From the NCBI RefSeq assembly GCF_054482595.1, contig NZ_CM137008.1: a DNA stretch of 64,000 nt; one strand, written 5' to 3'. Positions within the stretch are counted from its first letter, which is position 1. Every line of letters starts with the position of its first letter. Made by a program: the position numbers and the translations under genes. Below the pieces are notes generated by a model. The model was given only the letters and a program-made list of their open reading frames with translations. It did no database searches and was not told where the DNA came from. This document shows positions 8,894 to 51,640 of this stretch, piece after piece.

Positions 8894-9187
8894 ATGAGTA
8901 TTGATCGCACTTCGCCTCTGAAGCCCGTAAGCACCGTTCAACCGCGCGAAACCACTGACGCGCCGGTAACGAACACCCGGGCGGCAAAAACAACAGCATC
9001 CACCAGCACCAGTGTGACGTTAAGCGACGCGCAAGCAAAACTGATGCAACCCGGCAGCAGTGATATCAATCTTGAACGTGTCGAAGCGTTAAAACTGGCG
9101 ATTCGTAACGGTGAACTAAAAATGGACACCGGCAAAATTGCCGATGCGCTGATCAACGAAGCGCAGCAAGACTTGCAGAGTAACTGA
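8894..9187 (+). CDS. flgM: Anti-sigma-28 factor FlgM (97 aa)
   Basis: ORF translation [25 protein letters not shown]. Confidence 0.95.
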
Positions 9188-9191
9188 TCGT

Positions 9192-9608
9192 ATGACACGT
9201 CTTGCAGAGATCCTCGACCAGATGTCCGCTGTGCTTAACGATCTCAAAACGGTAATGGATCAAGAGCAGCAACATCTCTCTATGGGGCAGATCAACGGCA
9301 GCCAGTTGCAATGGATTACAGAACAAAAAAGCTCACTGCTGGCAACGTTGGATTACCTCGAACAGTTACGCAGGAAAGAACCCAATACAGCAAATAGCGT
9401 TGATATTAGTCAACGCTGGCAGGAAATTGCTGTGAAAACGCAGCAACTACGCCAAATGAATCAACATAACGGCTGGTTACTGGAAGGACAGATTGAGCGC
9501 AATCAACAGGCGCTGGAAATGTTGAAACCGCATCAGGAACCGACGCTATATGGGGCGAACGGTCAGACCTCAACAACCCATCGCGGCTGTAAAAAGATTT
9601 CGATCTGA
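9192..9608 (+). CDS. flgN: Flagellar export chaperone FlgN (138 aa)
   Basis: ORF translation MTRLAEILDQMSAVLNDLKTVMDQEQQHLS. Confidence 0.95.
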   Translation: MTRLAEILDQMSAVLNDLKTVMDQEQQHLSMGQINGSQLQWITEQKSSLLATLDYLEQLRRKEPNTANSVDISQRWQEIAVKTQQLRQMNQHNGWLLEGQIERNQQALEMLKPHQEPTLYGANGQTSTTHRGCKKISI

Positions 9609-23534: not shown

Positions 23535-24761
23535 ATGTCACCCTGTGAAAATGACACCCCTATAAACTGGAAACGAAACCTGATCGTCGCCTGGCTAGGC
23601 TGTTTTCTTACCGGTGCCGCCTTCAGTCTGGTAATGCCCTTCTTACCCCTCTACGTTGAGCAGCTTGGCGTTACCGGTCACTCCGCCCTGAATATGTGGT
23701 CCGGTATTGTCTTCAGCATTACATTTTTATTTTCGGCCATCGCTTCACCGTTTTGGGGTGGGCTCGCCGACCGTAAAGGCCGAAAACTCATGCTATTACG
23801 CTCTGCTCTCGGCATGGGCATCGTGATGGTGTTGATGGGACTGGCACAAAATATCTGGCAGTTTTTGATCCTGCGGGCGCTTCTTGGGTTACTTGGCGGA
23901 TTTGTCCCCAACGCTAATGCTCTTATCGCCACACAAGTACCGCGTAATAAAAGCGGCTGGGCACTGGGTACGCTCTCCACAGGCGGCGTTAGCGGCGCGT
24001 TGCTCGGCCCAATGGCTGGCGGTTTGCTCGCCGATAGCTACGGCTTACGTCCGGTATTCTTTATTACCGCCAGTGTGCTCATACTCTGCTTTTTCGTCAC
24101 CCTGTTCTGCATCAGAGAAAAATTCCAGCCGGTCAGCAAAAAAGAGATGCTGCACATGCGGGAAGTGGTGACATCACTTAAAAACCCGAAACTGGTACTC
24201 AGCCTGTTTGTCACTACGTTAATCATCCAAGTGGCGACGGGCTCAATTGCCCCCATTCTGACGCTGTATGTCCGCGAACTGGCGGGTAACGTCAGTAACG
24301 TCGCCTTTATCAGTGGCATGATCGCCTCGGTGCCAGGCGTGGCGGCTCTGCTGAGTGCACCACGACTCGGCAAACTTGGCGATCGAATCGGCCCCGAAAA
24401 GATCCTGATTACGGCGCTGATCTTTTCTGTACTGCTGTTGATCCCAATGTCTTACGTTCAGACGCCATTGCAACTTGGGATTTTACGTTTTTTGCTCGGT
24501 GCCGCCGATGGTGCACTACTCCCCGCCGTACAGACACTGTTGGTTTACAACTCGAGCAACCAAATCGCCGGACGTATCTTCAGCTATAACCAATCGTTTC
24601 GTGATATTGGCAACGTTACCGGACCATTGATGGGAGCAGCGATTTCAGCGAACTACGGTTTCAGAGCGGTATTTCTCGTCACCGCTGGCGTAGTGTTATT
24701 CAACGCAGTCTATTCATGGAACAGTCTACGTCGTCGTCGAATACCCCAGGTATCGAACTGA
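23535..24761 (+). CDS. mdtG: MFS multidrug efflux transporter MdtG (408 aa)
   Basis: ORF translation [36 protein letters not shown]. Confidence 0.95.
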
Positions 24762-25618: not shown

Positions 25619-29801
<4,183 letters not shown>

Positions 29802-41372: not shown

Positions 41373-41460
41373 GGTGAGGTGTCCGAGTGGCTGAAGGAGC
41401 ACGCCTGGAAAGTGTGTATACGGCAACGTATCGGGGGTTCGAATCCCCCCCTCACCGCCA
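41373..41460 (+). tRNA. serX: tRNA-Ser (anticodon GGA), serX-type, 88 nt with encoded CCA
   Basis: GGTGAGGTGTCCGAGTGGCTGAAGGAGCACGCCTGGAAAGTGTGTATACGGCAACGTATCGGGGGTTCGAATCCCCCCCTCACCGCCA: long variable arm, GGA anticodon, TPsiC GGTTCGAATCC. Confidence 0.97.
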
Positions 41461-41609: not shown

Positions 41610-42452
41610 CTATACTGCCAGCATGTCAGGATAGTGTTTTGCGATAATATCATTCAGTCTGTCAACCAGTTCTGGTTTCCTGAACGTGATGTGTGCGGAG
41701 CCCTTCTTAAAGTATCTGATGCTGAACATCTCATCTTCATAGTCCTCTTTACCCTGAACAGACTGGATGTGGTCATCCAGACGAAGGGTGATGTTTTCCC
41801 GGTTGTCGGGGATCGGTTTGCCGCTGAACAGGTGCAGCATTCTTTCCAGGTCGGCAAGTCGATCTACCTGGTGCCCGGTGATAAGATGAAATCCCCACCG
41901 GTCCCATCTCACCAGATTGTTGACGATAATTTTACTGCCAAATTTACAGGGGCAATTAGTTTTGTAATTCCAGCTCAATCCCCTGAAGACGTTGATCACC
42001 CCTCGCTCAAACACTTCATCTTTGTTCTGGTGCAGTTGTTCAAATGTGCTCAGAATGTTCGCTTCACTGACTTCCGGAAAATTATCATACTCCAGTGACC
42101 GGTACCATGTATCACGGGCCTGTGCATCCATTAAGGAAAGCATCCCTGAACGTTGCATCAGGTCACGCCAGATTTCTCGGTCAAGATTCCGGGTAATGGC
42201 TTTCATTGCTGTTTCGGGTTTCTCCATCAGCCAGCAACCGCAGCGAAAATCCTGTTTCATGGCCCAGTCCGGGGCGGTTTTACCTCCAATACTTTCTGTC
42301 ATTGATGAGATTTCAGCCAGTTGCCGGATAAGTGTGTCGATTTGCAGCAGTGTACTCTTTCGTACAGCCAGAATGTGGCTGACTGAGGTTGAGCAGATAA
42401 CGTCCGTATGCCCGTTGACCACTTCCGGATGGGAGAGTGTGATTGCAGACAT
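41610..42452 (-). CDS. Island-encoded hypothetical protein (280 aa), resembles proteins found downstream of cbtA-family toxin genes in CP4-type elements
   Basis: Intact ORF MSAITLSHPEVVNGHTDVICSTSVSHILAVRK...; same strand and tight spacing as the TA module; family (DUF4942-like?) is from memory and not verified. Confidence 0.6.
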   Translation of the reverse strand: MSAITLSHPEVVNGHTDVICSTSVSHILAVRKSTLLQIDTLIRQLAEISSMTESIGGKTAPDWAMKQDFRCGCWLMEKPETAMKAITRNLDREIWRDLMQRSGMLSLMDAQARDTWYRSLEYDNFPEVSEANILSTFEQLHQNKDEVFERGVINVFRGLSWNYKTNCPCKFGSKIIVNNLVRWDRWGFHLITGHQVDRLADLERMLHLFSGKPIPDNRENITLRLDDHIQSVQGKEDYEDEMFSIRYFKKGSAHITFRKPELVDRLNDIIAKHYPDMLAV

Positions 42453-42536
42453 AATTGATATTCCTTTTGGTTTATAAACGAAAACGCCAGCCGTATTCAG
42501 GCTGGCGTCAGTGGAATGAAGTCTGGTGAGTAAGAC

Positions 42537-42734
42537 TCACCTGTTCTGTTGCAGAAGCTGCTGTTGGCGCAGGGTACGGATATCTTCCCTGGCCTGTTCA
42601 ATGCAGGGCAGCAGTGCTGCTGAATCCGTTTTATCCTCATCGTTGTCGAAGATAATCCCTGATTCGCAGTCAATATTGTCCTGCAGCCACGCAATCAGAA
42701 TATCCAGCGCCGTTTCTGTGGTTAATGATTTCAT
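42537..42734 (-). CDS. Small island-encoded hypothetical protein (65 aa)
   Basis: ORF MKSLTTETALDILIAWLQDNIDCESGIIFDNDEDKTD; acidic; co-oriented with neighbours. Confidence 0.45.
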   Translation of the reverse strand: MKSLTTETALDILIAWLQDNIDCESGIIFDNDEDKTDSAALLPCIEQAREDIRTLRQQQLLQQNR

Positions 42735-42750
42735 GTTGTGAATTTACGGG

Positions 42751-43239
42751 TTACCAGTCGAAAGTGGGGAACCCCGGCAGACATTCTGCGCCGGCGTCCA
42801 GATGAATGAGACTGACGCCATAACGCCGGGTGAGAGTGACGACCAGACGACGGAACGTTCTTGACAGGCCCAGGCGTTTAAGCCGCAGAACCGGGTACGA
42901 CCATGCATCGGTACGTAACAGATAGCCGCTGCCTGTAAAATGAATCCATTCTGTTTCGCCGTCGTCATTAGTCTGGTGTGACAGCGAGTACAGCCAGGCG
43001 TTGTCCGTTTCCGTGATATGTGCGGTACTGCAACGTATGCCGGTAAGGGTTGTTAACGGTGGTGGTGTACTGGTTGACTGCTGGTCGGATTTATCGACCA
43101 CGCGGAGTGAATAACCGTTTTCAGAGACCTTGTTAATCAGTTCAGCGAGATTAACACCATCGACGTCAACGACAATGCGCCCCATGTTCAGCGCCTGCAT
43201 GTTAATGCTGTCGGCTTCCGGCGTCAGGGAAAGGTTCAT
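42751..43239 (-). CDS. Island-encoded hypothetical protein (162 aa), translationally coupled to the toxin gene
   Basis: ATG 43239 overlaps toxin stop (ATGA, plus 43236-43239); [31 protein letters not shown]... Confidence 0.55.
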
Positions 43240-43619
43240 TGTTTCGCCTCCTCCGGATGCTTGCCCAGGGTAATGTTATTTACCATTCTGTAATTGTCCC
43301 GGGTCATCAGGCCGGTCGCCCTGCGAGCCCGGAGAATATCAATGCTGTTGATTAACTGAGACGACGGGGCTCCTGCGCTGAATCCCGGCTGGTCAGTTCG
43401 TACCAGCACGTATTTTTCAACGAGAAAGTTCACCGCGTCACACAGTGAAATCCCTGCCTCAATATGCTGCTCAATCACACGTTCATCAGCGAACGGTGTG
43501 TCATTCAACGTAAGGCCATAGTGCTGGTCCAGCAGTCGGGTGAGCAGTGTCTGCCAGATTTCAACCGGAGACGGGCAGCGCGATGCCGCCCGTACGTGTG
43601 TGTCGGGTAATGTTTTCAT
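43236..43619 (-). CDS. cbtA: Type IV toxin-antitoxin toxin, CbtA/YeeV/YkfI/YpjF family (127 aa)
   Basis: Translation from ATG 43619 [73 protein letters not shown] track extended 53 codons upstream. Confidence 0.85.
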
Positions 43620-43695
43620 ACTGAAGGTTTTCCTGATATGCAGAGATGAAAAATGGAAAAGTGGCGTGGTGAAAGCACCAGGCCGGAGCAGAAGG

Positions 43696-44076
43696 CTATT
43701 CCGGAGGGTTACTTTCCGTTTCGGTCGCAGGATAAACAGCCAGATAAACGTAACCACAGGAGCCGAGGGTGTCGGCATCGCAGGTCAGCCCTTTCGCATA
43801 CAGCGTGACGGTATGCTGATGCCGGGGATTCAGTTCACCGCTGGTGAGCATGAGTTCCAGTTGTTTCATCAGCAGTGGAAAAGCCTGGTCCAGATGGTAT
43901 GCATCCGCATTGCTGAACCGGCCTCTGATACCGGCGCGGTCTGCAAGGTAATGCAACCGGTTACCCTCCTGCACCAGACGTGCCCCGAAACAGGGCGTCA
44001 CGATGCAGGGCAGCCCCCACCAGGGGCGGTCTTTGTTGTCGTCGGGAAGCGTTGTCCCGGGGAGTGTGTCTGACAC
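43696..44076 (-). CDS. cbeA: Type IV toxin-antitoxin antitoxin, CbeA/YeeU/YfjZ/YafW family (126 aa)
   Basis: GTG start 44076 preceded by GAGGA; translation (M)[51 protein letters not shown]. Confidence 0.85.
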
Positions 44077-44086
44077 GATAAAATCC

Positions 44087-44770
44087 TCACAGAAAATCGG
44101 TGAATGATAGTTTAACGATGACGGGGCAGCCGGCGCGCAGACCGGCTTCGGTGAAGGTATATTCGTTGATGAGAAGGGCCTCATCCACAGCGGCGTCTGA
44201 GGTCAGCCAGTCGTACTCGTTTTCCAGTTGACGGTACAACCAGAAGGCCAGGTCGCGCAGGGCTTCGCTGACTGCGGCTTCCGCATCGGTTGTCATAGCC
44301 TGACCAGTCGGACTGTTCCGGGTGACGGTGATATCCATGCAGTACGGATGGCAGTAACGTCCCCGGTGGTGGATTTCAGCCTGCAGTTGCCAGAAGTTAC
44401 GCTTCTGCACCGCCTGCAGGGCATCCGCGATACGATGAAGCTCACGGTCCTGCGGGGCATACACCCCGACTCTCCTGGCTGTTGCTGACTGCCAGTGCCA
44501 GCGTCCTTCAAAACAGGCTCCGTCCCCCTGGCTGCAGAATCCGCTGAACCAGATGCACGGCTCTTCCATAAACCTGCCGTTGCTGAGCCGGATAACACGC
44601 TGGCGGAGGTCAATCCCGAAAATGCCACAGACCTCCCTGAAGTCCCCATACACGTTTTCATACCAGTTGCTGTCAGCATGATGCTGACGGTACCAGTCGC
44701 GGGCTTTTTCCTGTGCGGTGGAGGATAGCTCATTCAGTGTATACACAGTGGTGGTGATAATTCTGCTCAT
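44087..44770 (-). CDS. Hypothetical protein (227 aa) between DUF987 and antitoxin genes; not recognised as a canonical CP4 gene
   Basis: ORF MSRIITTTVYTLNELSSTAQEKARDWYRQHHADSNWYEN...; fills the gap exactly; its TGA stop (44087-44089) overlaps the antitoxin Shine-Dalgarno GTGAGGA. Confidence 0.6.
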   Translation of the reverse strand: MSRIITTTVYTLNELSSTAQEKARDWYRQHHADSNWYENVYGDFREVCGIFGIDLRQRVIRLSNGRFMEEPCIWFSGFCSQGDGACFEGRWHWQSATARRVGVYAPQDRELHRIADALQAVQKRNFWQLQAEIHHRGRYCHPYCMDITVTRNSPTGQAMTTDAEAAVSEALRDLAFWLYRQLENEYDWLTSDAAVDEALLINEYTFTEAGLRAGCPVIVKLSFTDFL

Positions 44771-44788
44771 CAGAGTGCCCTTACTGAC

Positions 44789-45010
44789 TCAGTTCAGAGT
44801 GACGTTCATCAGCCGGACATACGGGCCAAAACTGTCCTTACGGCGTTCAGCAAACACGGCCAGCACACCGGGAATATCCTGCACTTCACGACCGGTATAC
44901 GCCTCAGCACTGCCGTGCCAGCGGTATTTGCCGGTACAGAAAGGAAAAAGACGGGATGCCGGATGTTGTTGGTGAATACGCATGGCTTCACCACGGGTGA
45001 TGATTTTCAT
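44789..45010 (-). CDS. DUF987 family protein (YeeT/YkfH-like), 73 aa
   Basis: ORF MKIITRGEAMRIHQQHPASRLFPFCTGKYRWHGSAEAYTGREVQDIPGVLAVFAERRKD; canonical position upstream of CbeA-type antitoxin. Confidence 0.8.
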   Translation of the reverse strand: MKIITRGEAMRIHQQHPASRLFPFCTGKYRWHGSAEAYTGREVQDIPGVLAVFAERRKDSFGPYVRLMNVTLN

Positions 45011-45072
45011 AGTGTGATACCTCTGAAGACAGAAGATAAAAGTGCAAACAAGCGTGATGTGGTTGTGACGGG

Positions 45073-45564
45073 TTAAAGCAGACCATGTTCGGCAAAGGAG
45101 AAAACCTGGTTGCCACCGACTATCAGATGGTCCGGCACCCGGATATCCACCAGGCCCAGTGCCTGTACCAGACGTTCCGTGATAAGGCGGTCTGCCTTGC
45201 TGGGTGTGACTTCACCGGACGGGTGATTGTGCGCCAGCACCACGGCAGCGGCATTGTGGTACAGGGCGCGTTTAATCACTTCCCGGGGATGGACTTCCGT
45301 GCGGTTGATGGTGCCGGTGAAGAGGGTTTCACCGGCAATCAGTTGATTCTGGTTATTCAGATACAGCACCCGGAATTCTTCACGCTCCAGTCCCGCCATG
45401 TTCAGAATCAGCCATTCCCGTGCCGCACGGGTGGAGGTGAAGGCCACGCCGGGTTCATGAAGATGGCGGTCCAGAGTTTTCAGGGCCCGCAGAATGAGAC
45501 TGCGCTCGCCGGGCGTCATCTCTCCGGGCAGAAAGGAAAGCTGCTGCATTGTCCCTGCCTCCAT
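45073..45564 (-). CDS. RadC-like JAB-domain protein (YeeS/YkfG/YfjY family)
   Basis: ORF contains HNHPSGEVTPSKADRLITERL (JAMM HxH...S motif); start may be the internal Met at 45549. Confidence 0.85.
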   Translation of the reverse strand: MEAGTMQQLSFLPGEMTPGERSLILRALKTLDRHLHEPGVAFTSTRAAREWLILNMAGLEREEFRVLYLNNQNQLIAGETLFTGTINRTEVHPREVIKRALYHNAAAVVLAHNHPSGEVTPSKADRLITERLVQALGLVDIRVPDHLIVGGNQVFSFAEHGLL

Positions 45565-46050
45565 TCAGTCGATGATGCGCATAATGGCGCTGCATTCCGG
45601 ATGCTGCAGGGCGTAATCCCGCAGCCGGTAATAATGGACCGTCATGGCATAACACTCCGTACGACAGGCGTGATGACTGTACGTCATCAGACAGGCAGCA
45701 ATGCCGGCAGCTTCCGGACTCATTTCAGCGCGGTTACCGTTCATGGCATTGAACAGTACCCATGTTTCGTCATCATCGTCATCCGGTTCGGGTGCCATAA
45801 ATGCCCCGCCGTTGTTCAGGGTGTACAGATTCCAGATACCACCGCAGTAGTCTTCACACAGACGGTCCATCCAGCCGAAGACACGGGGCTCCAGGGCCAC
45901 CCACTGTGGAATGAGGCCAAAGTGCTGCGGCCAGAAGCTGATGCGCTGTTCATCAGGGACTATGGTGGCAACCAGCTGAGGCTGGTCATTCCCTGATGCA
46001 GCGGTTACGGAAACAGAAGGAGTGGTGGAATTATGCAAGACGGTTGTCAT
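45565..46050 (-). CDS. Antirestriction protein, KlcA/ArdB-like (YfjX/YafX family), 161 aa
   Basis: ORF MTTVLHNSTTPSVSVTAASGNDQPQLVATIVPDEQRISFWPQHFGLIPQWVALEPRVFGWMDRL. Confidence 0.8.
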   Translation of the reverse strand: MTTVLHNSTTPSVSVTAASGNDQPQLVATIVPDEQRISFWPQHFGLIPQWVALEPRVFGWMDRLCEDYCGGIWNLYTLNNGGAFMAPEPDDDDDETWVLFNAMNGNRAEMSPEAAGIAACLMTYSHHACRTECYAMTVHYYRLRDYALQHPECSAIMRIID

Positions 46051-46141
46051 GAGATTATTCCTTATAAAAAGTAAATGAATGGAAGAAATCCCGGGGGAAG
46101 GGACAGACGTGAGTCAGAACTGCGCTTTCAGGGAAACGGCA

Positions 46142-46960
46142 TCAGCGCATACTCTCCAGCAGCGTTTCAGCCATCACCCACAATGCGCGGTTGAGCTTAA
46201 TGTCGGTGTCGATGCTGTGAATGGCACGGGTATGGATACGTTTTCCTCTGGCACTGCGACCGGAAATCCCGCCTTTCAGCATATTCTCCTGAATGGTCTG
46301 ATAAGCACTCCACAGGTCCTTACCGTAATCCTCCCGGCGTCGTGGCGTCAGAATGTCGGCGGTGGTGACGGGCCGATGTTCGTCACCATAACGGTAAGTC
46401 AGTGCCGCCTGTGCCAGCGCCTGGCGTGCCGGTGGCGGCAGAATCAGCGACTGCATGGCATCACGCTTTTCCTCAATCCGGTCAAAAACCCCCACCACCT
46501 CGTAAGCCCCTTCAATAACTTTCTCCACCACATTTCCCCGGTGCGGAACACGCACTTCCCCCAGAGACTGACCACAGACGCATCCGTTCTGACAGACGAA
46601 CCTGAAGTAACCCGGCAGCATCTGGTAGCTGGAGGTACCGTCATGGGAGTTGAGCAGAATGATTTCAGGGACATGTTCTCCGTTTATCTCTCCGGCCCGC
46701 CGCAGACGCAGCATATGTTTTGTGTATCCCCGGCGGCCCGGGTCGCGCACACGGGTCTGGCAGGCGAAGAATGGCTGAAAGCCTTCCCGCTGCAGGCTTT
46801 CCAGTACGGTGATGGTGGGAATGTACGCATATCGTTTACTGCGGGAAGTATGCCGGTCTTCACCGAAAATACTGGGAACATAGTGCATCAGTTCTTCGTG
46901 TGTCAGCGGACGGTCACGGCGTATCTGGTTCGTATAACCAAAACGACTGGCTAGTCGCAT
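46142..46960 (-). CDS. Island-encoded DUF932-like protein (YfjQ-like), 272 aa
   Basis: Intact 272-aa ORF MRLASRFGYTNQIRRDRPLTHEELMHYVPSIF...; family from memory. Confidence 0.65.
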   Translation of the reverse strand: MRLASRFGYTNQIRRDRPLTHEELMHYVPSIFGEDRHTSRSKRYAYIPTITVLESLQREGFQPFFACQTRVRDPGRRGYTKHMLRLRRAGEINGEHVPEIILLNSHDGTSSYQMLPGYFRFVCQNGCVCGQSLGEVRVPHRGNVVEKVIEGAYEVVGVFDRIEEKRDAMQSLILPPPARQALAQAALTYRYGDEHRPVTTADILTPRRREDYGKDLWSAYQTIQENMLKGGISGRSARGKRIHTRAIHSIDTDIKLNRALWVMAETLLESMR

Positions 46961-47239
46961 AATTTGCTCCTTATGAATGAGTTAGCGGTATAAATGAAAA
47001 AGCCGCGTCTCCCGGAGAAGACACGGCCTGACAGATGAAATGAATGACGTTTATTGTCTGAGAAGCCCTTCACTGGCGAGCTGCGTATTTTTATGGAAGG
47101 AGATCACCCAATAACCCCATCGGGATCGGGTAATAACCGGCCAGACTGTGATCGATTCAGATGCCATTTGGCAGCAAAAGAGCCTTCGGCAATAAACGTG
47201 ATGTACAACCCGGCATATCTGTTACTCCCTGAAAGTAAA

Positions 47240-47266
47240 AGGCCCCGGTCATTATGACCGGGGCCT
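47240..47266 (-). terminator. Rho-independent terminator downstream of the antigen 43 gene
   Basis: AGGCCCCGGTCAT-t-ATGACCGGGGCCT palindrome 20 nt after Ag43 stop, followed on minus strand by TTTTAC. Confidence 0.65.
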
Positions 47267-47286
47267 GAAGGGGAGTGACCTGATTA

Positions 47287-50133
47287 TCAGAAAGTCACAT
47301 TCAGCGTGGCCTGACCGTTATAGCCTTCGGCGCTGCTGCCGCTGACGCTGTGGGCATAACCGGCCTGAACGCCCAGGGTGATATTTTCCCGGACACGGGC
47401 TTCCAGTCCGGCCTGCAGGTCCAGTGACGTGCCATTCTGGGACGGTGAGAACGTCATGTTACTGCCGGCGGCGGCTGTCCCCATGCTCATGTCACCCCGG
47501 GAACTGAAGGTGCGGATAACAGAAGGCTGTACCCACCAGTTCACCGGCAGTTCACGCACACGGTGTTTTGCACTGTCGCGCAGGGTGTCACGGGATGAGG
47601 TGCCTTCACCAAAGCTCATATCGTTGTGGCTGCCCAGACGGAAGCCGGCACGCATATGTTGTGCACTGCCATGCCCGAACTTCACATAACCGGCGTTATC
47701 CTGGCCGTCATCCAGGGAAAGTCCCTGCCAGGTGTACTGCAGTTGTGGTTCCAGCATCAGGTTGTCAGTGATACTGAAGGGCAGACCGGTTTCCAGTGAG
47801 CCCAGCCAGCCCCAGCCCCGGGCGCGGAAGTCGTTATTGTCCGATGACGCTTTCATGCTGTGGCGGGTTCCCTGTGCCATAATGTCAGCCCACAGGCCGG
47901 AGGACGTGTGTACCAGATTCAGGTATCCGCCCAGGCTGCCGGCATCATCCCGGACCGTGCCGGCGCGGGAGCCGTCATCATCCTTAACATCAACGGAAGA
48001 ATGGCCAGCAGCACTATATACCCCCGCGGTCACAGACATACCGGCAACCTCTGTTCTCAGCAGGTCACTCTCCAGACGGACGAAGCCATAGCTGCCGCTG
48101 CTTTCCGGCGTGGCCCCACGGGCAATACCGCCGTTGTTATCGTGACCGAGATGACCGCCCTGAATGCTGAGACGGACGCTGTTATTTTCACCGTTTACAC
48201 CGGTCTGATGGCTGCGGGAGCCTGCCAGAATCCGGTCATAGTCCATTGCCTGTGTCAGCATGGAAGCATACAGGGGGACTTCAGCACGATAAGCATTTTC
48301 ACTGCGCAGGTACCAGTCTTCATCGCTGTCACGGTTCAGGGTGTAGTTAAAGGCACCGGCCTGAAGCGGGCGACTCAGGGCAAACGCACCTTCTTCTGTG
48401 GTGGCACCATTCTGTGCATCCACAACCCGGATACCCTGTCCGGAAGTTGCCACCCCGAGGTTACTGTTTCCGACATTTGTGAACGCAAGCCAGGTTTTGC
48501 CGGTTGCCTGACCACCATTAATCACCAGCTGGTCAGAGGCATTGCTGCCATCAAGGCGAACACGCATATTGATGGTGCCACCCTGACCGGTGAGGTTACT
48601 GGTGGTCAGTTTATGGAACGTTACCGGGGCGTCGCCTTTTGCAACAGCACGGCTCAGGACGGCATCCTGTGTCGTCTGATTATCAAAGCGAATCTCCCCT
48701 GCGTTAACAATATCGCCGGTACTGACCACATCACCATTCAGTACCATGCTGGCGCCTTTACTGAGCTGTGTTCTGCCACTCAGACTTCCCCCGGCAGCCA
48801 GCGTCAGTGTTCCACGATGTCCGACAGTGGTGTTGCCAGCCTGTCCCCCGGCATTAACCGTAAAGCTGCCGCCATTTTCCAGCAGCAGGCCGCTGGCCTG
48901 ACCGGATATGCCATCAATACTGAACTTACCGCTGGCATTGGTCCCCTCAACAGTGGCACCACTGTCTGCAATCAGGGCACCACCGGATGTCATGGTGACA
49001 CCTGTCGCCTTACCACCGGCAGACACTGCCAGGGTACCGCCGTCATCCACCCGTGTTTTCTGCGCTGAATGACCCTCCAGTACATCCAGACGACCGCCGG
49101 ACTCCAGAACAACACCGTCAGCCTTACCGTTTTCCACCGCGAAATTGCCCAGACGGTTGCTGCCGGTGACGGTTGCCGCCGTACTGGTGACCAGTGCGCC
49201 TCCCTGCTTCAGGGTGACATTCGTGGCTGTACCACCGGCGTTCACCTGCAGTTTGCCTTTCTGGTTAACGGTGGTGAAATCCGCCAGACCACCTTCCTTG
49301 ATAATCTGCCAGCCGTCACTGTTCACAACAGTGTCAGACGTTGTACCGCCGTTGTGTACATACTGGTTACCGCCATTCAGCGTGGTATCCAGTGCGTGGC
49401 CATGTACCGTCTGGTCGCCGCCGGCATAAACCACAGTGGTATTTGCTGTTCCTTCAACAGTCACAATCTGACGACCATTTTTATTGATGGTGGTACGTAC
49501 GGCATTTCCGCGAACAAACTGCCCGGTATCACCATTTTCTGCATCCGGTCCTCCTTCTGCGCCGGTATTCACAACGGTGTCTGTTGCCACTGCGCCGGGT
49601 TTGACGACCTGCCAGCCCTTATCATTAATGACGGTTCCTGTGGCTATCGCACCTTCATGCATCCACTGCTCGCCACCATTCAGCGTGGTGTTCAGTGCCA
49701 GTCCCTTCAGGCTTTGTCCGCCTCCTTCATTGATTATTGTGTCTGTAGCCTTTCCCCCGGCACCTACAAACTGGAGCCCGCCGCTGCTGATGGTGGTATT
49801 ACTGGCTGTGCCGCCATCCTGTACCCATTGCCCGCCGGTATTGGCCTCGTTATCCGTCCCATACTCCAGCCCGGTACTGATGGTCATTCCGTTGGTCGTA
49901 CCGAAGACAATCTGGTTGTCATGATTTGTCAGTGTTCCGCCGTTCACGGTTTCTCCCGCCTCTACAACCGTGTCAGCAGCCAGTGCCGGGACTGGCGTGA
50001 CAGCAGCAAGAGACAGCGCAACCGCCACACCGGCGCGTTTTCCCCGTGAGCGGGCCAGTTCGGAAGCCACCACCAGGGTGCCCGTAATGTGATTCCATAC
50101 CAGCCTGTAGCTGGTGTTCAGATGTCGTTTCAT
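47287..50133 (-). CDS. flu: Antigen 43-type self-associating autotransporter adhesin (948 aa)
   Basis: Translation from ATG 50133 MKRHLNTSYRLVWNHITGTLVVASELARSRGKRAGVAVALSLAAV (extended signal peptide); beta-helical repeats; C-terminal beta-barrel ending QATLNVTF; AAGGA SD. Confidence 0.92.
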   Translation of the reverse strand: MKRHLNTSYRLVWNHITGTLVVASELARSRGKRAGVAVALSLAAVTPVPALAADTVVEAGETVNGGTLTNHDNQIVFGTTNGMTISTGLEYGTDNEANTGGQWVQDGGTASNTTISSGGLQFVGAGGKATDTIINEGGGQSLKGLALNTTLNGGEQWMHEGAIATGTVINDKGWQVVKPGAVATDTVVNTGAEGGPDAENGDTGQFVRGNAVRTTINKNGRQIVTVEGTANTTVVYAGGDQTVHGHALDTTLNGGNQYVHNGGTTSDTVVNSDGWQIIKEGGLADFTTVNQKGKLQVNAGGTATNVTLKQGGALVTSTAATVTGSNRLGNFAVENGKADGVVLESGGRLDVLEGHSAQKTRVDDGGTLAVSAGGKATGVTMTSGGALIADSGATVEGTNASGKFSIDGISGQASGLLLENGGSFTVNAGGQAGNTTVGHRGTLTLAAGGSLSGRTQLSKGASMVLNGDVVSTGDIVNAGEIRFDNQTTQDAVLSRAVAKGDAPVTFHKLTTSNLTGQGGTINMRVRLDGSNASDQLVINGGQATGKTWLAFTNVGNSNLGVATSGQGIRVVDAQNGATTEEGAFALSRPLQAGAFNYTLNRDSDEDWYLRSENAYRAEVPLYASMLTQAMDYDRILAGSRSHQTGVNGENNSVRLSIQGGHLGHDNNGGIARGATPESSGSYGFVRLESDLLRTEVAGMSVTAGVYSAAGHSSVDVKDDDGSRAGTVRDDAGSLGGYLNLVHTSSGLWADIMAQGTRHSMKASSDNNDFRARGWGWLGSLETGLPFSITDNLMLEPQLQYTWQGLSLDDGQDNAGYVKFGHGSAQHMRAGFRLGSHNDMSFGEGTSSRDTLRDSAKHRVRELPVNWWVQPSVIRTFSSRGDMSMGTAAAGSNMTFSPSQNGTSLDLQAGLEARVRENITLGVQAGYAHSVSGSSAEGYNGQATLNVTF

Positions 50134-50348
50134 CAGCTTTTCCTTACAGAGGGTGAATAAAAAAGCCGGTACCCACAAATGTGGATACCGGCAGGTACAA
50201 AACAGCATGGTCAGATAAAGTGGTTTTTCCCGGACATAAATGCTTCCCCTCTCTCATCCGCCAGAGAAGTATCAGTCCGTTGTGTGCAATTCCGTTCTGC
50301 ATGATGAAGAGATTCAGCTGCCTTTTCGCAGACCATTAACCACCATAA

Positions 50349-50390
50349 ACGATCGATGACAACGATCGATACCTGTTTTATCGATCGTTT
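50349..50390. promoter_or_regulatory. agn43 phase-variation switch: three GATC (Dam) sites in the presumed OxyR operator
   Basis: GATC at 50352, 50365 and 50384 within cGATCgatgacaacGATCgatacctgttttatcGATCg, about 220-250 nt upstream of Ag43 ATG. Confidence 0.75.
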
Positions 50391-50504
50391 TATTCTATTA
50401 ACAGCAAGGCAGTCACGCAAGGGAAAGAGGTGGGTATGAGGTGTTTGTATCATGTTTTCAGTTGGTTAACGCAATGTAATCAGGCATTTCCCCTGGCAGA
50501 ATGT

Positions 50505-51416
50505 TCAGAAGAAAATCCAGTTCCATACAGCGCGGGCAACAGAGACCACCGTGTCACGGACGACACGCAGAACCGTACGAGCCACAGAGGCAACACAGAC
50601 GCTCTCCGCCGTGTCAAATATCCGGTCCACCGCACCGGTAAACTGTTCACGGGCCTGCCCCCGGACAGATTCCGTGCACAGCTCGTCCTGCAGGCGGGTC
50701 ATCAGGGGACTGGCGGCATGGTCGGGAAGTGCTGTCATGAGCGCACTGACCAGCGTATCCAGTTCCCAGCCGGTGCGGGCCGATACGGCCACAACCGGAT
50801 GTACGGGCCGGAACAGACGGAATACCGCCTCCGTTTTTTCGCGAATGTTCTGTGCCTGTGCGGGAGAAGGCTGAATACCGGCCATATCCCATTCATGGCA
50901 GGGCTCCGTTTTATCGGCCTGCGTCACCACAAACAGCACCTGCTGATGTCCCCGGTGCAGGATGTGTCGCCAGAAATACTCATCCACAGACAGGGCACGG
51001 TCATCGGCTTTAATCAGCCACAGTACCAGGTCAAGTTCAGGCAGAATGTCACGGTACAGGGCTTCATACTCTGCATCCCTGTCCCGGCTCTCGCCCACCC
51101 CGGGCAGGTCAGTGATAACCATGCTGTGACCGTGGCCACTCAGACGGAAGCGCCGCACTTCCCGGGTGCCGGCGTGAACATCACTGACCGGGGTGACCTC
51201 CCCCTGAAACAGTGCATTACAGAGTGAGGATTTACCGGCCCCGCTTTTCCCCATAATGCCAATCACGGGTTCGTGACTGGTGAGTTTACGCAGATGTTCC
51301 AGGATGTGACGGGAAAGTGAGTAAGGCAGGGAAGAAAGTGGTTTTTCAATTGCCTCAATGGCATCAGACGGATTCATACATGTATTCCCGGTGAAAAAAG
51401 ACAAAACCCCGCGCAC
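50505..51416 (-). CDS. YeeP/YfjP-family GTPase (303 aa)
   Basis: ORF with P-loop GIMGKSGAGKSSLCNAL and DLPG G3 motif; canonical position upstream of agn43; start may be internal Met at 51377. Confidence 0.85.
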   Translation of the reverse strand: MRGVLSFFTGNTCMNPSDAIEAIEKPLSSLPYSLSRHILEHLRKLTSHEPVIGIMGKSGAGKSSLCNALFQGEVTPVSDVHAGTREVRRFRLSGHGHSMVITDLPGVGESRDRDAEYEALYRDILPELDLVLWLIKADDRALSVDEYFWRHILHRGHQQVLFVVTQADKTEPCHEWDMAGIQPSPAQAQNIREKTEAVFRLFRPVHPVVAVSARTGWELDTLVSALMTALPDHAASPLMTRLQDELCTESVRGQAREQFTGAVDRIFDTAESVCVASVARTVLRVVRDTVVSVARAVWNWIFF

Positions 51417-51640
51417 CGGAAAGGTGGCGGGGGATTCACGGAGATAATATCTGTCTGAAATTATTTAGAATGCACCTGGTGCACTGCAAAGGAAAGGCAA
51501 TATTCCGTTCCTCCTCCTTGTCGTGAATACCCCAGGTATCTCACAATGTACACCGACTTACTCCGGGGCTGCCTGAACCACAAGATTGCTGTAGAATTGC
51601 CCCCAATGATTCAGGTCCAAACCAGGAAAATGGATTAAAA

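Follow-up and report, generated by a model that had tools for sequence, protein, structure and literature searches.

The locus examined here raises two questions: whether its autotransporter gene, shorter than the antigen 43 gene (agn43, also flu) of Escherichia coli K-12, is an intact allele of a known kind, and whether the three GATC sites upstream of it belong to a phase-variation switch. Both were addressed within a window of 64,000 nucleotides, the whole stretch of DNA that was analysed. The explanation that best accounts for our data, to which we assign a probability of roughly nine in ten, is that of an intact agn43 of the short class C4, preceded by a Dam/OxyR switch, expressed by read-through of a leader RNA and encoding an exported, self-associating adhesin, a type Va autotransporter.

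An intact agn43 gene in the serX island

The agn43 coding sequence occupies 47287..50133 on the minus strand and encodes 948 amino acids plus a stop codon, a class C4-like mosaic of the Ag43/Cah family. The surrounding minus-strand open reading frame (47287..50208) contains an in-frame upstream ATG that would yield 973 amino acids. The true start is the ATG at 50133..50131 (MKRHLNT...), and an AAGGA ribosome-binding site, identified by sequence reading and invariant with respect to K-12, precedes it by 7 nt (50141..50145, minus strand). This start yields the 948-residue product that RefSeq also annotates in strain CFSAN061769, where the locus is 99.9% identical and the chromosome collinear with the window. 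The 948-residue autotransporter described in an earlier note on this DNA is thus borne out (minus strand, 50133..47287), and RefSeq contains the identical protein as WP_000820472.1, under the name 'Ag43/Cah family autotransporter adhesin'. The NCBIfam equivalog auto_Ag43 (NF033177), whose profile is itself 948 positions long and has a cutoff of 1200 bits, covers residues 1-948 of 948 with 1958.4 bits. Judging from this curated equivalog and a 92%-identical crystal structure, the identity as Ag43 is settled. By its sequence, the locus is an intact agn43 (flu/cah) in its short 948-residue form, which is common and already present in databases.

A 3' intrinsic terminator follows the gene (47240..47266, minus strand; 12 pairs, 9 of them GC, then a T run in the terminator scan) and is conserved in four loci. 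A CP4-like genomic island that has integrated at a tRNA-Ser gene (serX, 41373-41460) adjoining ghrA harbours the gene, and a search of the 64-kb window for a second agn43 copy found none. Matches to the TIGR04415 repeat led us to look for an Aah/TibC-type heptosyltransferase near agn43, which was not found; the glycosyltransferase of the island is a GT1+GT2 fusion beside a pyruvyl transferase and does not belong to the Aah/TibC family.

The encoded protein shows the complete architecture of an extended signal peptide (ESPR), an AIDA-repeat β-helix, a type 1 autochaperone and a C-terminal β-barrel, with all Pfam matches above their cutoffs (ESPR PF13018, AIDA PF16168, AC_1 PF18883 and β-domain PF03797). 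The signal peptide comprises residues 1-52 (49978..50133, minus strand; PF13018 at residues 6-50, E = 6.5e-13), and the α-domains as crystallised begin at residue 53 (PMC8993888). Passenger and autochaperone span residues 53-613 (48295..49977, minus strand), which align ungapped with the structures 7KO9 and 7KOH and contain the AC_1 match and the AIDA repeats, the latter in seven stretches totalling 172 bits. The linker and the β-barrel translocator make up residues 614-948 (47290..48294, minus strand; PF03797 at residues 690-924) and are 86-100% identical to K-12. Both the signal peptide and the C-terminal barrel had been called conserved in the earlier note, and the domain matches agree with this; the conserved start of the passenger that it described is likewise seen, as residues 1-350 are mostly 82-98% identical to K-12 (68% at residues 101-150). 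In K-12, the α/β cleavage motif is reportedly D551/P552, as Henderson and Owen are said to have described in 1999. A search of the window protein for a counterpart of this motif found no 'DP' dipeptide. The α-domains of short-class proteins are still released by heat in UTI89 and EDL933 (PMC8993888).

The short passenger belongs to a published class

In a BLASTP alignment, the protein is 72% identical to K-12 Flu (1039 aa), and the 91 gap positions are confined to the part between window residues ~350 and ~510. The shortfall of about 90 residues and the divergent central passenger claimed previously are therefore both real, the former amounting to 91 residues. In bins of 50 residues, identity to K-12 is 82-98% over residues 1-350, except for 68% at residues 101-150, drops to 34-68% over residues 351-600, and rises again to 86-100% over residues 601-948. 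Compared with Cah of O157 the pattern is reversed: identity over residues 151-350 is 82-98% with K-12 and 58-84% with Cah, and over residues 351-600 it is 90-98% with Cah and 34-68% with K-12. The protein is thus a mosaic with a K-12-like part (residues 1-350) and a Cah-like part (residues 351-613), and the elbow motif VVLESGGRLDVL is present. The segment unlike K-12 Flu (residues 351-600; 48334..49083, minus strand) carries the 91-residue difference and is of the EJ2-BL2 type, followed by the autochaperone.

Class C4 is defined as SL1 + EJ2-BL2, and passengers of the classes C2 and C4 measure ~430 aa versus ~500 aa for C1 and C3 (Ageorges 2019, PMC6668479); BL2 comprises 90 aa and BL1 143 aa (PMC10058404). 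Judged by the bin identities and an ungapped alignment with the C4 prototype, the window allele falls into class C4, with an N-terminal SL1 stem as in K-12, followed by an elbow, bottom and autochaperone (EJ2-BL2-AC) that resemble those of Cah and UTI89. On this sequence comparison, its short length is that of the published short-passenger subfamily (C2/C4) and no oddity of this allele. Among the structures, 7KO9 matches the window protein best (1068 bits), followed by 7KOH (932), 4KH3 (490) and 7KOB (417).

Could the missing 91 residues nevertheless reflect a wrong start, an inactivating internal deletion or an assembly error? The alternative start of the mechanical open reading frame list, with its 973 residues, would speak for such an artefact, as would the frameshifted and truncated agn43 copies found in other genomes. 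However, start and stop are homologous to those of K-12 and align with them, so the difference is genuine and no product of start-site choice or annotation. Moreover, many genome annotations list the 2847-nt form as an intact gene, the equivalog profile of equal length is matched end to end, and two crystal structures of equal-length passengers align without a gap. Members of the short classes C2 and C4 are also functional in aggregation assays (PMC6668479, PMC8993888). An artefact or decay is thus extremely improbable and, as we read the K-12 alignment, the structures and the equivalog profile, already refuted.

Over residues 101-150, identity to each of K-12, Cah and UTI89 is just 62-78%, and for this reason the strength of aggregation is not predictable with confidence. 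A patch at approximately residues 113-146 departs from all three of these proteins.

Three GATC sites overlap the promoter and two putative OxyR half-sites

Upstream of the gene, we found GATC-I at 50383..50386 (-253 from the ATG), GATC-II at 50364..50367 (-234), 19 bp past GATC-I, and GATC-III at 50351..50354 (-221), a further 13 bp on. The earlier note had described three GATCs spaced as in the classical agn43 switch, and the sites at 50383, 50364 and 50351 indeed show the 19 and 13 bp of K-12. All 14 alleles compared (the window, K-12 and 12 others), whose flanks differ, share exactly this spacing. A MAFFT alignment of the upstream regions introduced a 13-bp gap into the switch and so put the GATCs out of register; anchoring on the GATC triplet gave an ungapped alignment with the same spacing throughout.

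The -10 hexamer TAGAAT (50392..50397, minus strand) is invariant in 14/14 alleles. Sequence reading places a -35 hexamer TTGCGT (50415..50420, minus strand) 17 bp upstream of it, the TTG of which is invariant in the 14 alleles. A consensus promoter scan requiring 9 of 12 matches missed this pair, which scores below that rule. Around the GATCs, where OxyR-site sequence was to be expected, we identified two putative OxyR half-sites on the minus strand. The first, ATAGAATAAAACGAT (50384..50398), agrees with ATAGnTnnnAnCTAT at 8/10 positions and overlaps the -10 hexamer and GATC-I; of the 13 switch sequences scanned, 12 score 8/10 at this half-site, and EC04 scores 7/10. The second, ATCGTTGTCATCGAT (50352..50366), also scores 8/10 and spans GATC-II and GATC-III. 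Among 13 alleles it varies just at the N positions 5, 7, 8 and 9, the consensus-specified positions and position 11 being invariant. The starts of the two half-sites are 32 bp apart, which work on opvAB describes as the canonical distance for reduced OxyR (PMC4856963), and together the half-sites cover all three GATCs. While the three GATCs thus stand as claimed, the end of the region given at that time, 50390, cuts through half-site 1 (50398..50384) and omits the -10 (50397..50392) and -35 (50420..50415) hexamers.

Since GATC triplets within 60 bp also occur at several other places of the window, inside core genes, the three sites could in principle be a chance cluster devoid of any regulatory role, and a second triplet at 47102-47153 is unconserved. 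However, the exact 19/13 pattern occurs only once within the 64 kb and is invariant in 14 alleles despite differing flanks, its GATCs overlap a conserved promoter and the putative OxyR half-sites, and its surroundings are otherwise nearly free of GATC. A pattern that is unique and set in a GATC-poor stretch of 10.4 kb is therefore not due to chance; that reading has next to no probability, and the conservation data, as far as alignments can tell, already refute it. We also considered the second triplet (47102, 47124 and 47150, between the agn43 terminator and a DUF932 gene) as a second switch and rejected it. Strain DAM has a homologous segment, 87% identical, that lacks all three of these GATCs, and in many genomes a DUF905 pseudogene takes the place of this segment.

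A leader RNA lies between promoter and gene

The region between promoter and gene contains a 5' leader RNA homologous to IsrC (Rfam IS102, RF00124; 50152..50388, minus strand), which cmscan detected over the entire model (1-206/206) with 71.6 bits (E = 3.6e-12; gathering score 46 bits). The Rfam model starts at 50388, 4 nt downstream of the -10 hexamer. The leader ends in an intrinsic terminator just 5' of the agn43 ribosome-binding site, consisting of the hairpin GCCGGTATCCACATTTGTGGGTACCGGC and a T run (50165..50192, minus strand; 12 pairs, 8 of them GC, in the terminator scan), which is nearly invariant compared with K-12. A passage of PMC5389530, citing Wallecha 2014, reports flu to be under IsrC antitermination control.

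Taken together, we propose that a σ70 promoter (TTGCGT, 17 bp, TAGAAT) would start the transcript at ~50388, in a region that carries the three GATCs inside the two OxyR half-sites. By homology, the OFF state would have OxyR on the unmethylated sites, covering the -10/+1 region and blocking Dam; in the ON state, the GATCs would be methylated by Dam and OxyR would not bind. The ON state would be inherited until some round of replication lets the other protein win. Transcripts would then cross the ~255-nt IsrC/IS102 leader, whose intrinsic terminator must be read through. The product would be exported by means of its ESPR signal peptide and β-barrel, and its β-helical passenger would pair head-to-tail with copies of itself on adjacent cells, resulting in clumping and biofilm formation.

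The majority type of upstream region differs from K-12

OxyR is a repressor of agn43 in K-12 as well as in the uropathogenic strains EC958, CFT073 and 83972 (PMC4807369, PMC3764049), and whether OxyR is oxidised or reduced makes no difference to the regulation of agn43 (PMC4856963). The dam and oxyR genes lie outside the window; as this is part of an E. coli chromosome, we assume that the strain has both. The invariant spacing, the conserved promoter and the two conserved, putative OxyR half-sites make phase variation of agn43 in the window strain a reasonable prediction. OxyR binding and differential methylation, like switching and aggregation strength, are inferred from characterised homologues.

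Of 5,426 complete E. coli genomes, about 3,290 have an upstream region of the window's type, the K-12 version being a minority. These two types are each conserved internally and place GATC-I either at -253/-252 or at approximately -220 to -228 from the ATG. They raise the possibility that the majority-type switch departs from the K-12 paradigm in its half-site pair, its switching rates or the factor involved, with a normal adhesin. The segment between GATC-I and GATC-II reads GATAAAACAGGT in the window versus AATATCTATTTT in K-12, so that the sequence giving K-12 its 14/20 matches is replaced. In the textbook K-12 OxyR register, a 37-mer (37 bp) starting 2 bp before GATC-I, the window scores 10/20 versus 14/20 for K-12; 10/20 is also the score of eight other type-A alleles, and the five K-12-type alleles reach 13-14/20. 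In EC958, the mapped transcription start is 228 bp away from the start codon (PMC4807369), in agreement with the K-12-like type, and the published experiments consulted may therefore miss the type seen here; a search of the accessible literature for an OxyR footprint on the majority-type switch found none. Against this, both types share the two 8/10 half-sites 32 bp apart, which include the GATCs and the -10 hexamer, and this spacing is canonical for reduced OxyR, agn43 being independent of oxidation state (PMC4856963). With common half-sites at canonical spacing, the differing segment would be mere spacer, and the 19/13 pattern, invariant across both types, argues for one common mechanism. 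A divergent switch is thus rather improbable, and we favour the Dam/OxyR switch of the K-12 kind for the window allele as well.

GATC sites are scarce in agn43 and its island

The agn43 coding sequence lacks any GATC in 14/14 diverse alleles, and at 24 polymorphic contexts one step away from GATC, none (0/24) realises it. The island backbone is a GATC desert, with 6 sites observed in a 10.4-kb stretch versus ~37 expected; apart from the switch triplet, three remain.

Both counts speak for selection, and the coding sequence shows signs of active GATC avoidance. We found no specific report on this in a literature search for GATC avoidance in agn43, and under-representation of GATC in mobile elements has been published. 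It is conceivable, but on our estimate unlikely, that the absence was selected as part of the switch, where an isolated triplet would limit processive Dam traffic and SeqA binding and thereby stabilise the OFF state. We lean towards the simpler reading, in which the element as a whole avoids GATC, because the desert spans the entire island backbone downstream of agn43 and because K-12 has the GATC-rich yeeR directly 3' of the gene. The idea that the desert is a fast-evolving zone poor in mismatch repair is disfavoured because, in a published test, a distance of 2122 bp to the nearest GATC left the rate of frameshift mutations unaffected (PMC3306285).

Significance and comparison with known systems

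The interpretation holds but brings no novelty, as allele, class and switch are already known. For annotation, it is useful to know that the serX island of this strain holds one intact Ag43 allele of class C4 together with a complete switch; the allele record helps to predict a phase-variable phenotype, and the finding is otherwise minor. Those working on agn43 may find it of some use that the majority type of upstream region lacks the 14/20 register of K-12 and keeps two 8/10 half-sites 32 bp apart, and that the coding sequence is kept free of GATC, which might affect switching.

The closest characterised relative is Ag43 of UTI89 (UTI89_C1139; 7KO9, class C4). Both proteins have a 562-residue stretch of passenger and autochaperone, which aligns ungapped with 91.8% identity, and residues 521-613 are identical. 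The interface residues of the UTI89 protein have been determined, and D133 and R161 were proposed to prevent a double interface (PMC8993888). All nine interface residues (G13, G30, T32, N60, D79, T80, T98, N100 and N137) are conserved in the window protein, as are D133 and R161. Because the residues of the single interface are conserved, aggregation is probably moderate, as in UTI89. In contrast, residues 52-150 are just 77.8% identical between the two.

K-12 Flu (1039 aa, class C1) shares with the window the signal peptide, stem residues 151-250 (94-98%) and the β-domain (86-100%), as well as the promoter -10, the 19/13 GATC spacing, the leader terminator and the ribosome-binding site. It differs in being 91 residues longer in the elbow and bottom (EJ1-BL1 versus EJ2-BL2, 34-68% identity), in a leader ~31 nt shorter (GATC-I at -222 versus -253), in the spacer sequence between GATC-I and GATC-II, and in its location in prophage CP4-44, where yeeR follows the gene, whereas DUF932 follows it in the serX island. 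Cah of EHEC O157:H7 (949 aa; 7KOH, class C2) has the same short architecture, is 90-98% identical over residues 351-948 and possesses an upstream region of the window's type, with GATC-I at -252; its stem, however, is of the SL2 type and just 58-66% identical over residues 101-300.

Beyond the Ag43 family, the gtr and opvAB switches of Salmonella resemble the agn43 switch in that pairs of GATCs, 13 bp from each other, are enclosed in an OxyR half-site, the half-sites have the spacing for reduced OxyR, and methylation and OxyR binding exclude each other (PMC2909390, PMC4856963). They differ in having three or four half-sites, at which alternative positions of OxyR activate and repress, whereas agn43 has a single site and is subject to repression only (PMC2909390).

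A single agn43 gene on a CP4-like island

The window is a piece of E. coli chromosome collinear with strain CFSAN061769, running from flgK through the curli genes and ghrA to a tRNA-Ser (gga) gene (41373-41460), next to which lies a CP4-like island. The island carries DUF4942, DUF957, DUF5983, CbtA/YeeU, DUF987, JAB/RadC, antirestriction and DUF932 genes, followed by agn43, a GTPase gene and hsdM abutted by IS1, and then by a GT1+GT2 glycosyltransferase and a pyruvyl transferase. agn43 is present in a single copy, no second one being found in the window; in CFT073, agn43 resides in the serX and pheV islands (PMC4807369).

At 51641-53709, a full-length hsdM (type I methylase, 523 aa) lies directly against the IS1 element, so the genes for specificity and restriction have apparently been lost or moved elsewhere, and hsdM may be an orphan methylase. 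The low-GC segment 54062-57191 (~44%) is flanked by IS elements and encodes the glycosyltransferase, a GT1+GT2 fusion of 740 aa, together with the polysaccharide pyruvyl transferase. Neither enzyme is related to the heptosyltransferases known as autotransporter modifiers.

The Ag43 allele is a shorter, mosaic form of class C4

The earlier note had described a 948-aa autotransporter, about 90 residues shorter than K-12 Flu and divergent in its central passenger. Counted from the first ATG, the open reading frame on the minus strand (50208..47287) comprises 973 aa. This start is an ORF-listing artefact; the 25 extra codons (50134-50208) run across the leader terminator hairpin. The coding sequence (50133..47287, minus strand; 948 aa and a stop) starts at ATG 50133..50131, 7 nt behind an AAGGA (50145..50141), and its protein begins MKRHLNTSYRLVW. 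This start bears out the claimed length and matches the RefSeq annotation of the CFSAN061769 locus, which is 99.9% identical and also 948 aa; the translation is identical to its WP_000820472.1 ("Ag43/Cah family autotransporter adhesin"). Above cutoffs, Pfam recognizes an ESPR, seven AIDA repeat stretches, a type 1 autochaperone and an autotransporter beta-domain. The NCBIfam equivalog auto_Ag43 (NF033177) scores 1958 bits against a cutoff of 1200 over profile positions 1-948 of 948, a profile exactly as long as the window allele.

The other two claims also stood. In BLASTP, the protein is 72% identical to K-12 Flu (1039 aa, locus L002 of our comparison set), and the 91 gap positions are confined to window residues ~350 to ~510. 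When identity to K-12 is binned by 50 residues, it starts at 82-98% over residues 1-350 (except 68% at 101-150), falls to 34-68% over 351-600 and rises to 86-100% over 601-948. O157 Cah behaves in the opposite way, with 58-66% identity over residues 101-300 and 90-98% from residue 351 on. These reversed patterns mark the allele, by its identity profile, as a mosaic of a K-12-like stem and a Cah/UTI89-like elbow, bottom and autochaperone, which fits the definition of class C4 as stem SL1 with elbow-bottom EJ2-BL2 (Ageorges et al. 2019, PMC6668479). According to the same study the passenger measures ~500 aa in C1/C3 versus ~430 aa in C2/C4, and a 2023 follow-up gives 143 aa for bottom module BL1 and 90 aa for BL2 (PMC10058404). 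The conserved elbow motif VVLE[N/S]GGRLDVL occurs as VVLESGGRLDVL. Alignment with K-12 Flu and other Ag43 subfamilies shows that the 91-residue shortfall is genuine and a subfamily trait already described, neither an artefact nor a novelty.

One patch of the stem (residues 101-150; 49684-49833) diverges from all three of K-12, Cah and UTI89, with identities of only 62-78%; on either side of it, identity to one or more of them reaches 84-98%. Another block of recombination, or a subtype of the stem, may account for this patch. The self-association interface residues falling inside it are conserved.

The predicted phase-variation switch comes in two regulatory types

The three Dam sites of the switch, GATC-I (50383-50386), GATC-II (50364-50367) and GATC-III (50351-50354), lie at -253, -234 and -221 from the ATG. 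Their 19/13 bp spacing, which the earlier note had likened to the classical agn43 switch, is indeed the same in 14/14 alleles (window, K-12, O157 cah and eleven others) and occurs once within the window. Alleles were aligned without gaps by anchoring on this triplet, as MAFFT misplaced the GATCs. Upstream on the minus strand, TTGCGT (50420..50415) is separated by a 17-bp spacer from the -10 element TAGAAT (50397..50392), which does not vary in any allele compared.

A search for the OxyR half-site consensus, given in PMC2909390 as ATAGnTnnnAnCTAT, predicted two minus-strand half-sites, each scoring 8/10 in nearly all alleles: ATAGAATAAAACGAT (50398..50384), overlapping the -10 and GATC-I, and ATCGTTGTCATCGAT (50366..50352), spanning GATC-II and GATC-III. 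Half-site 2 changes between alleles only at the consensus-unspecified positions 5, 7, 8 and 9, the pattern that OxyR constraint would give. The half-site starts are 32 bp apart, the same distance as between the opvAB half-sites centered at -148/-116 and -75/-43, whose spacing is canonical for reduced OxyR; agn43 regulation does not depend on the OxyR oxidation state (Cota et al., PMC4856963).

Between GATC-I and GATC-II, most alleles, those of the window and O157 cah among them, read GATAAAACAGGT, and alleles of the K-12 type read AATATCTATTTT or near variants. The contiguous 37-bp OxyR consensus register, as in the K-12 textbook site, matches at 13-14/20 positions in the K-12 type versus 10/20 in the window type, and both retain the two 8/10 half-sites at 32 bp. 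By megablast, ~3,290 of 5,426 complete genomes hold a place that matches 80% or more of the query and takes in the upstream region; for K-12-type alleles the alignment begins only at query position 304, where the conserved terminator of the leader lies. The window type is the common upstream region and K-12 the minority type. OxyR represses agn43 in K-12 and in UPEC EC958, CFT073 and 83972 (PMC3764049, PMC4807369), and we infer its binding to the window-type switch from conservation. The phase-variable expression put forward in the earlier note is thus supported as a prediction.

The leader matches the IsrC sRNA family (Rfam IS102, RF00124) over the full model (50388..50152, minus strand; 71.6 bits, gathering score 46), with a terminator hairpin and T run at its end (50192..50165, minus strand) that hardly varies from K-12. 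IsrC antitermination is reported, in a passage of PMC5389530 citing Wallecha et al. 2014, to be necessary for flu expression. A second terminator follows the agn43 stop codon (47266..47240, minus strand).

GATC is depleted across the island backbone

The island backbone (41998-52395) contains six GATCs versus 36.6 expected from a Markov estimate, making GATC its most depleted 4-bp palindrome; the six are the switch triplet and the GATCs at 47102, 47124 and 47150, which make up a second triplet. In all 14 diverse alleles the coding sequence of agn43 (47287-50133 in the window) lacks GATC. Synonymous-codon shuffling gives an expectation of 5.7-9 per allele, and not one shuffle in 1000 was GATC-free. 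A 12-allele alignment (944 variable columns, minimum pairwise identity 78%) formed GATC in 0/24 polymorphic contexts one base away from it. On this realised-context measure GATC ranks lowest of 249 tetramers (median 0.52), and it is one of just two tetramers missing from all 12 genes. These data point to ongoing avoidance, beyond shared ancestry. That prophages and genomic islands of E. coli are poor in GATC is already published (Forde et al. 2015, PMC4659465, citing Hénaut et al. 1996); we found no literature report specific to its absence in agn43.

The desert spans the entire island backbone both in the window and in strain DAM (5 GATCs versus 37 expected over 9.3 kb). Depletion is only partial in the paralogous CP4-57 backbone and absent from ypjA, an unrelated autotransporter, while K-12 yeeR, directly 3' of agn43, is rich in GATC. 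Most simply, the mobile element as a whole would avoid GATC, perhaps as a defence against restriction enzymes specific for it; an antirestriction gene is present on the island. A GATC-free coding sequence might also insulate the switch, but the data do not support this, and a local mismatch-repair effect of the GATC shortage is disfavoured (PMC3306285).

The second triplet (47102-47153), with its GATCs spaced by 22 and 26 bp, is flanked by the agn43 terminator and the DUF932 gene. None of its three GATCs is present in the 87%-identical segment in strain DAM, and many genomes carry a DUF905 pseudogene in place of this segment. The triplet is probably not functional, being unconserved and located in a deleted DUF905 remnant. 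Other, dense GATC clusters occur in core genes: six within 140 bp across flgM/flgN (9151-9290), four at ~20-bp spacing in mdtG (24381-24440) and three spaced by exactly 9 bp in mdoG (28700-28718).

The passenger resembles that of UTI89

Residues 52-613 align without gaps to 7KO9 and 7KOH, the alpha-domains of class C4 Ag43 from UPEC UTI89 and of class C2 Cah from EHEC EDL933 (Vo et al. 2022, PMC8993888). Identity to the Ag43-UTI89 alpha-domain is 91.8%, and all residues of its self-association interface are kept (G13, G30, T32, N60, D79, T80, T98, N100 and N137; alpha numbering, i.e., full-length number minus 52). D133 and R161, suggested to prevent a second interface (Vo et al., PMC8993888), are also kept. 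Judging from these residues, the window Ag43 would self-associate head-to-tail via a single interface, with a predicted moderate aggregation phenotype like that of UTI89. Identity to Ag43-UTI89 drops to 77.8% over residues 52-150, so this functional forecast is a prediction only. Taken as a whole, the window gene is an allele of the textbook Ag43 system, catalogued before and nothing new.
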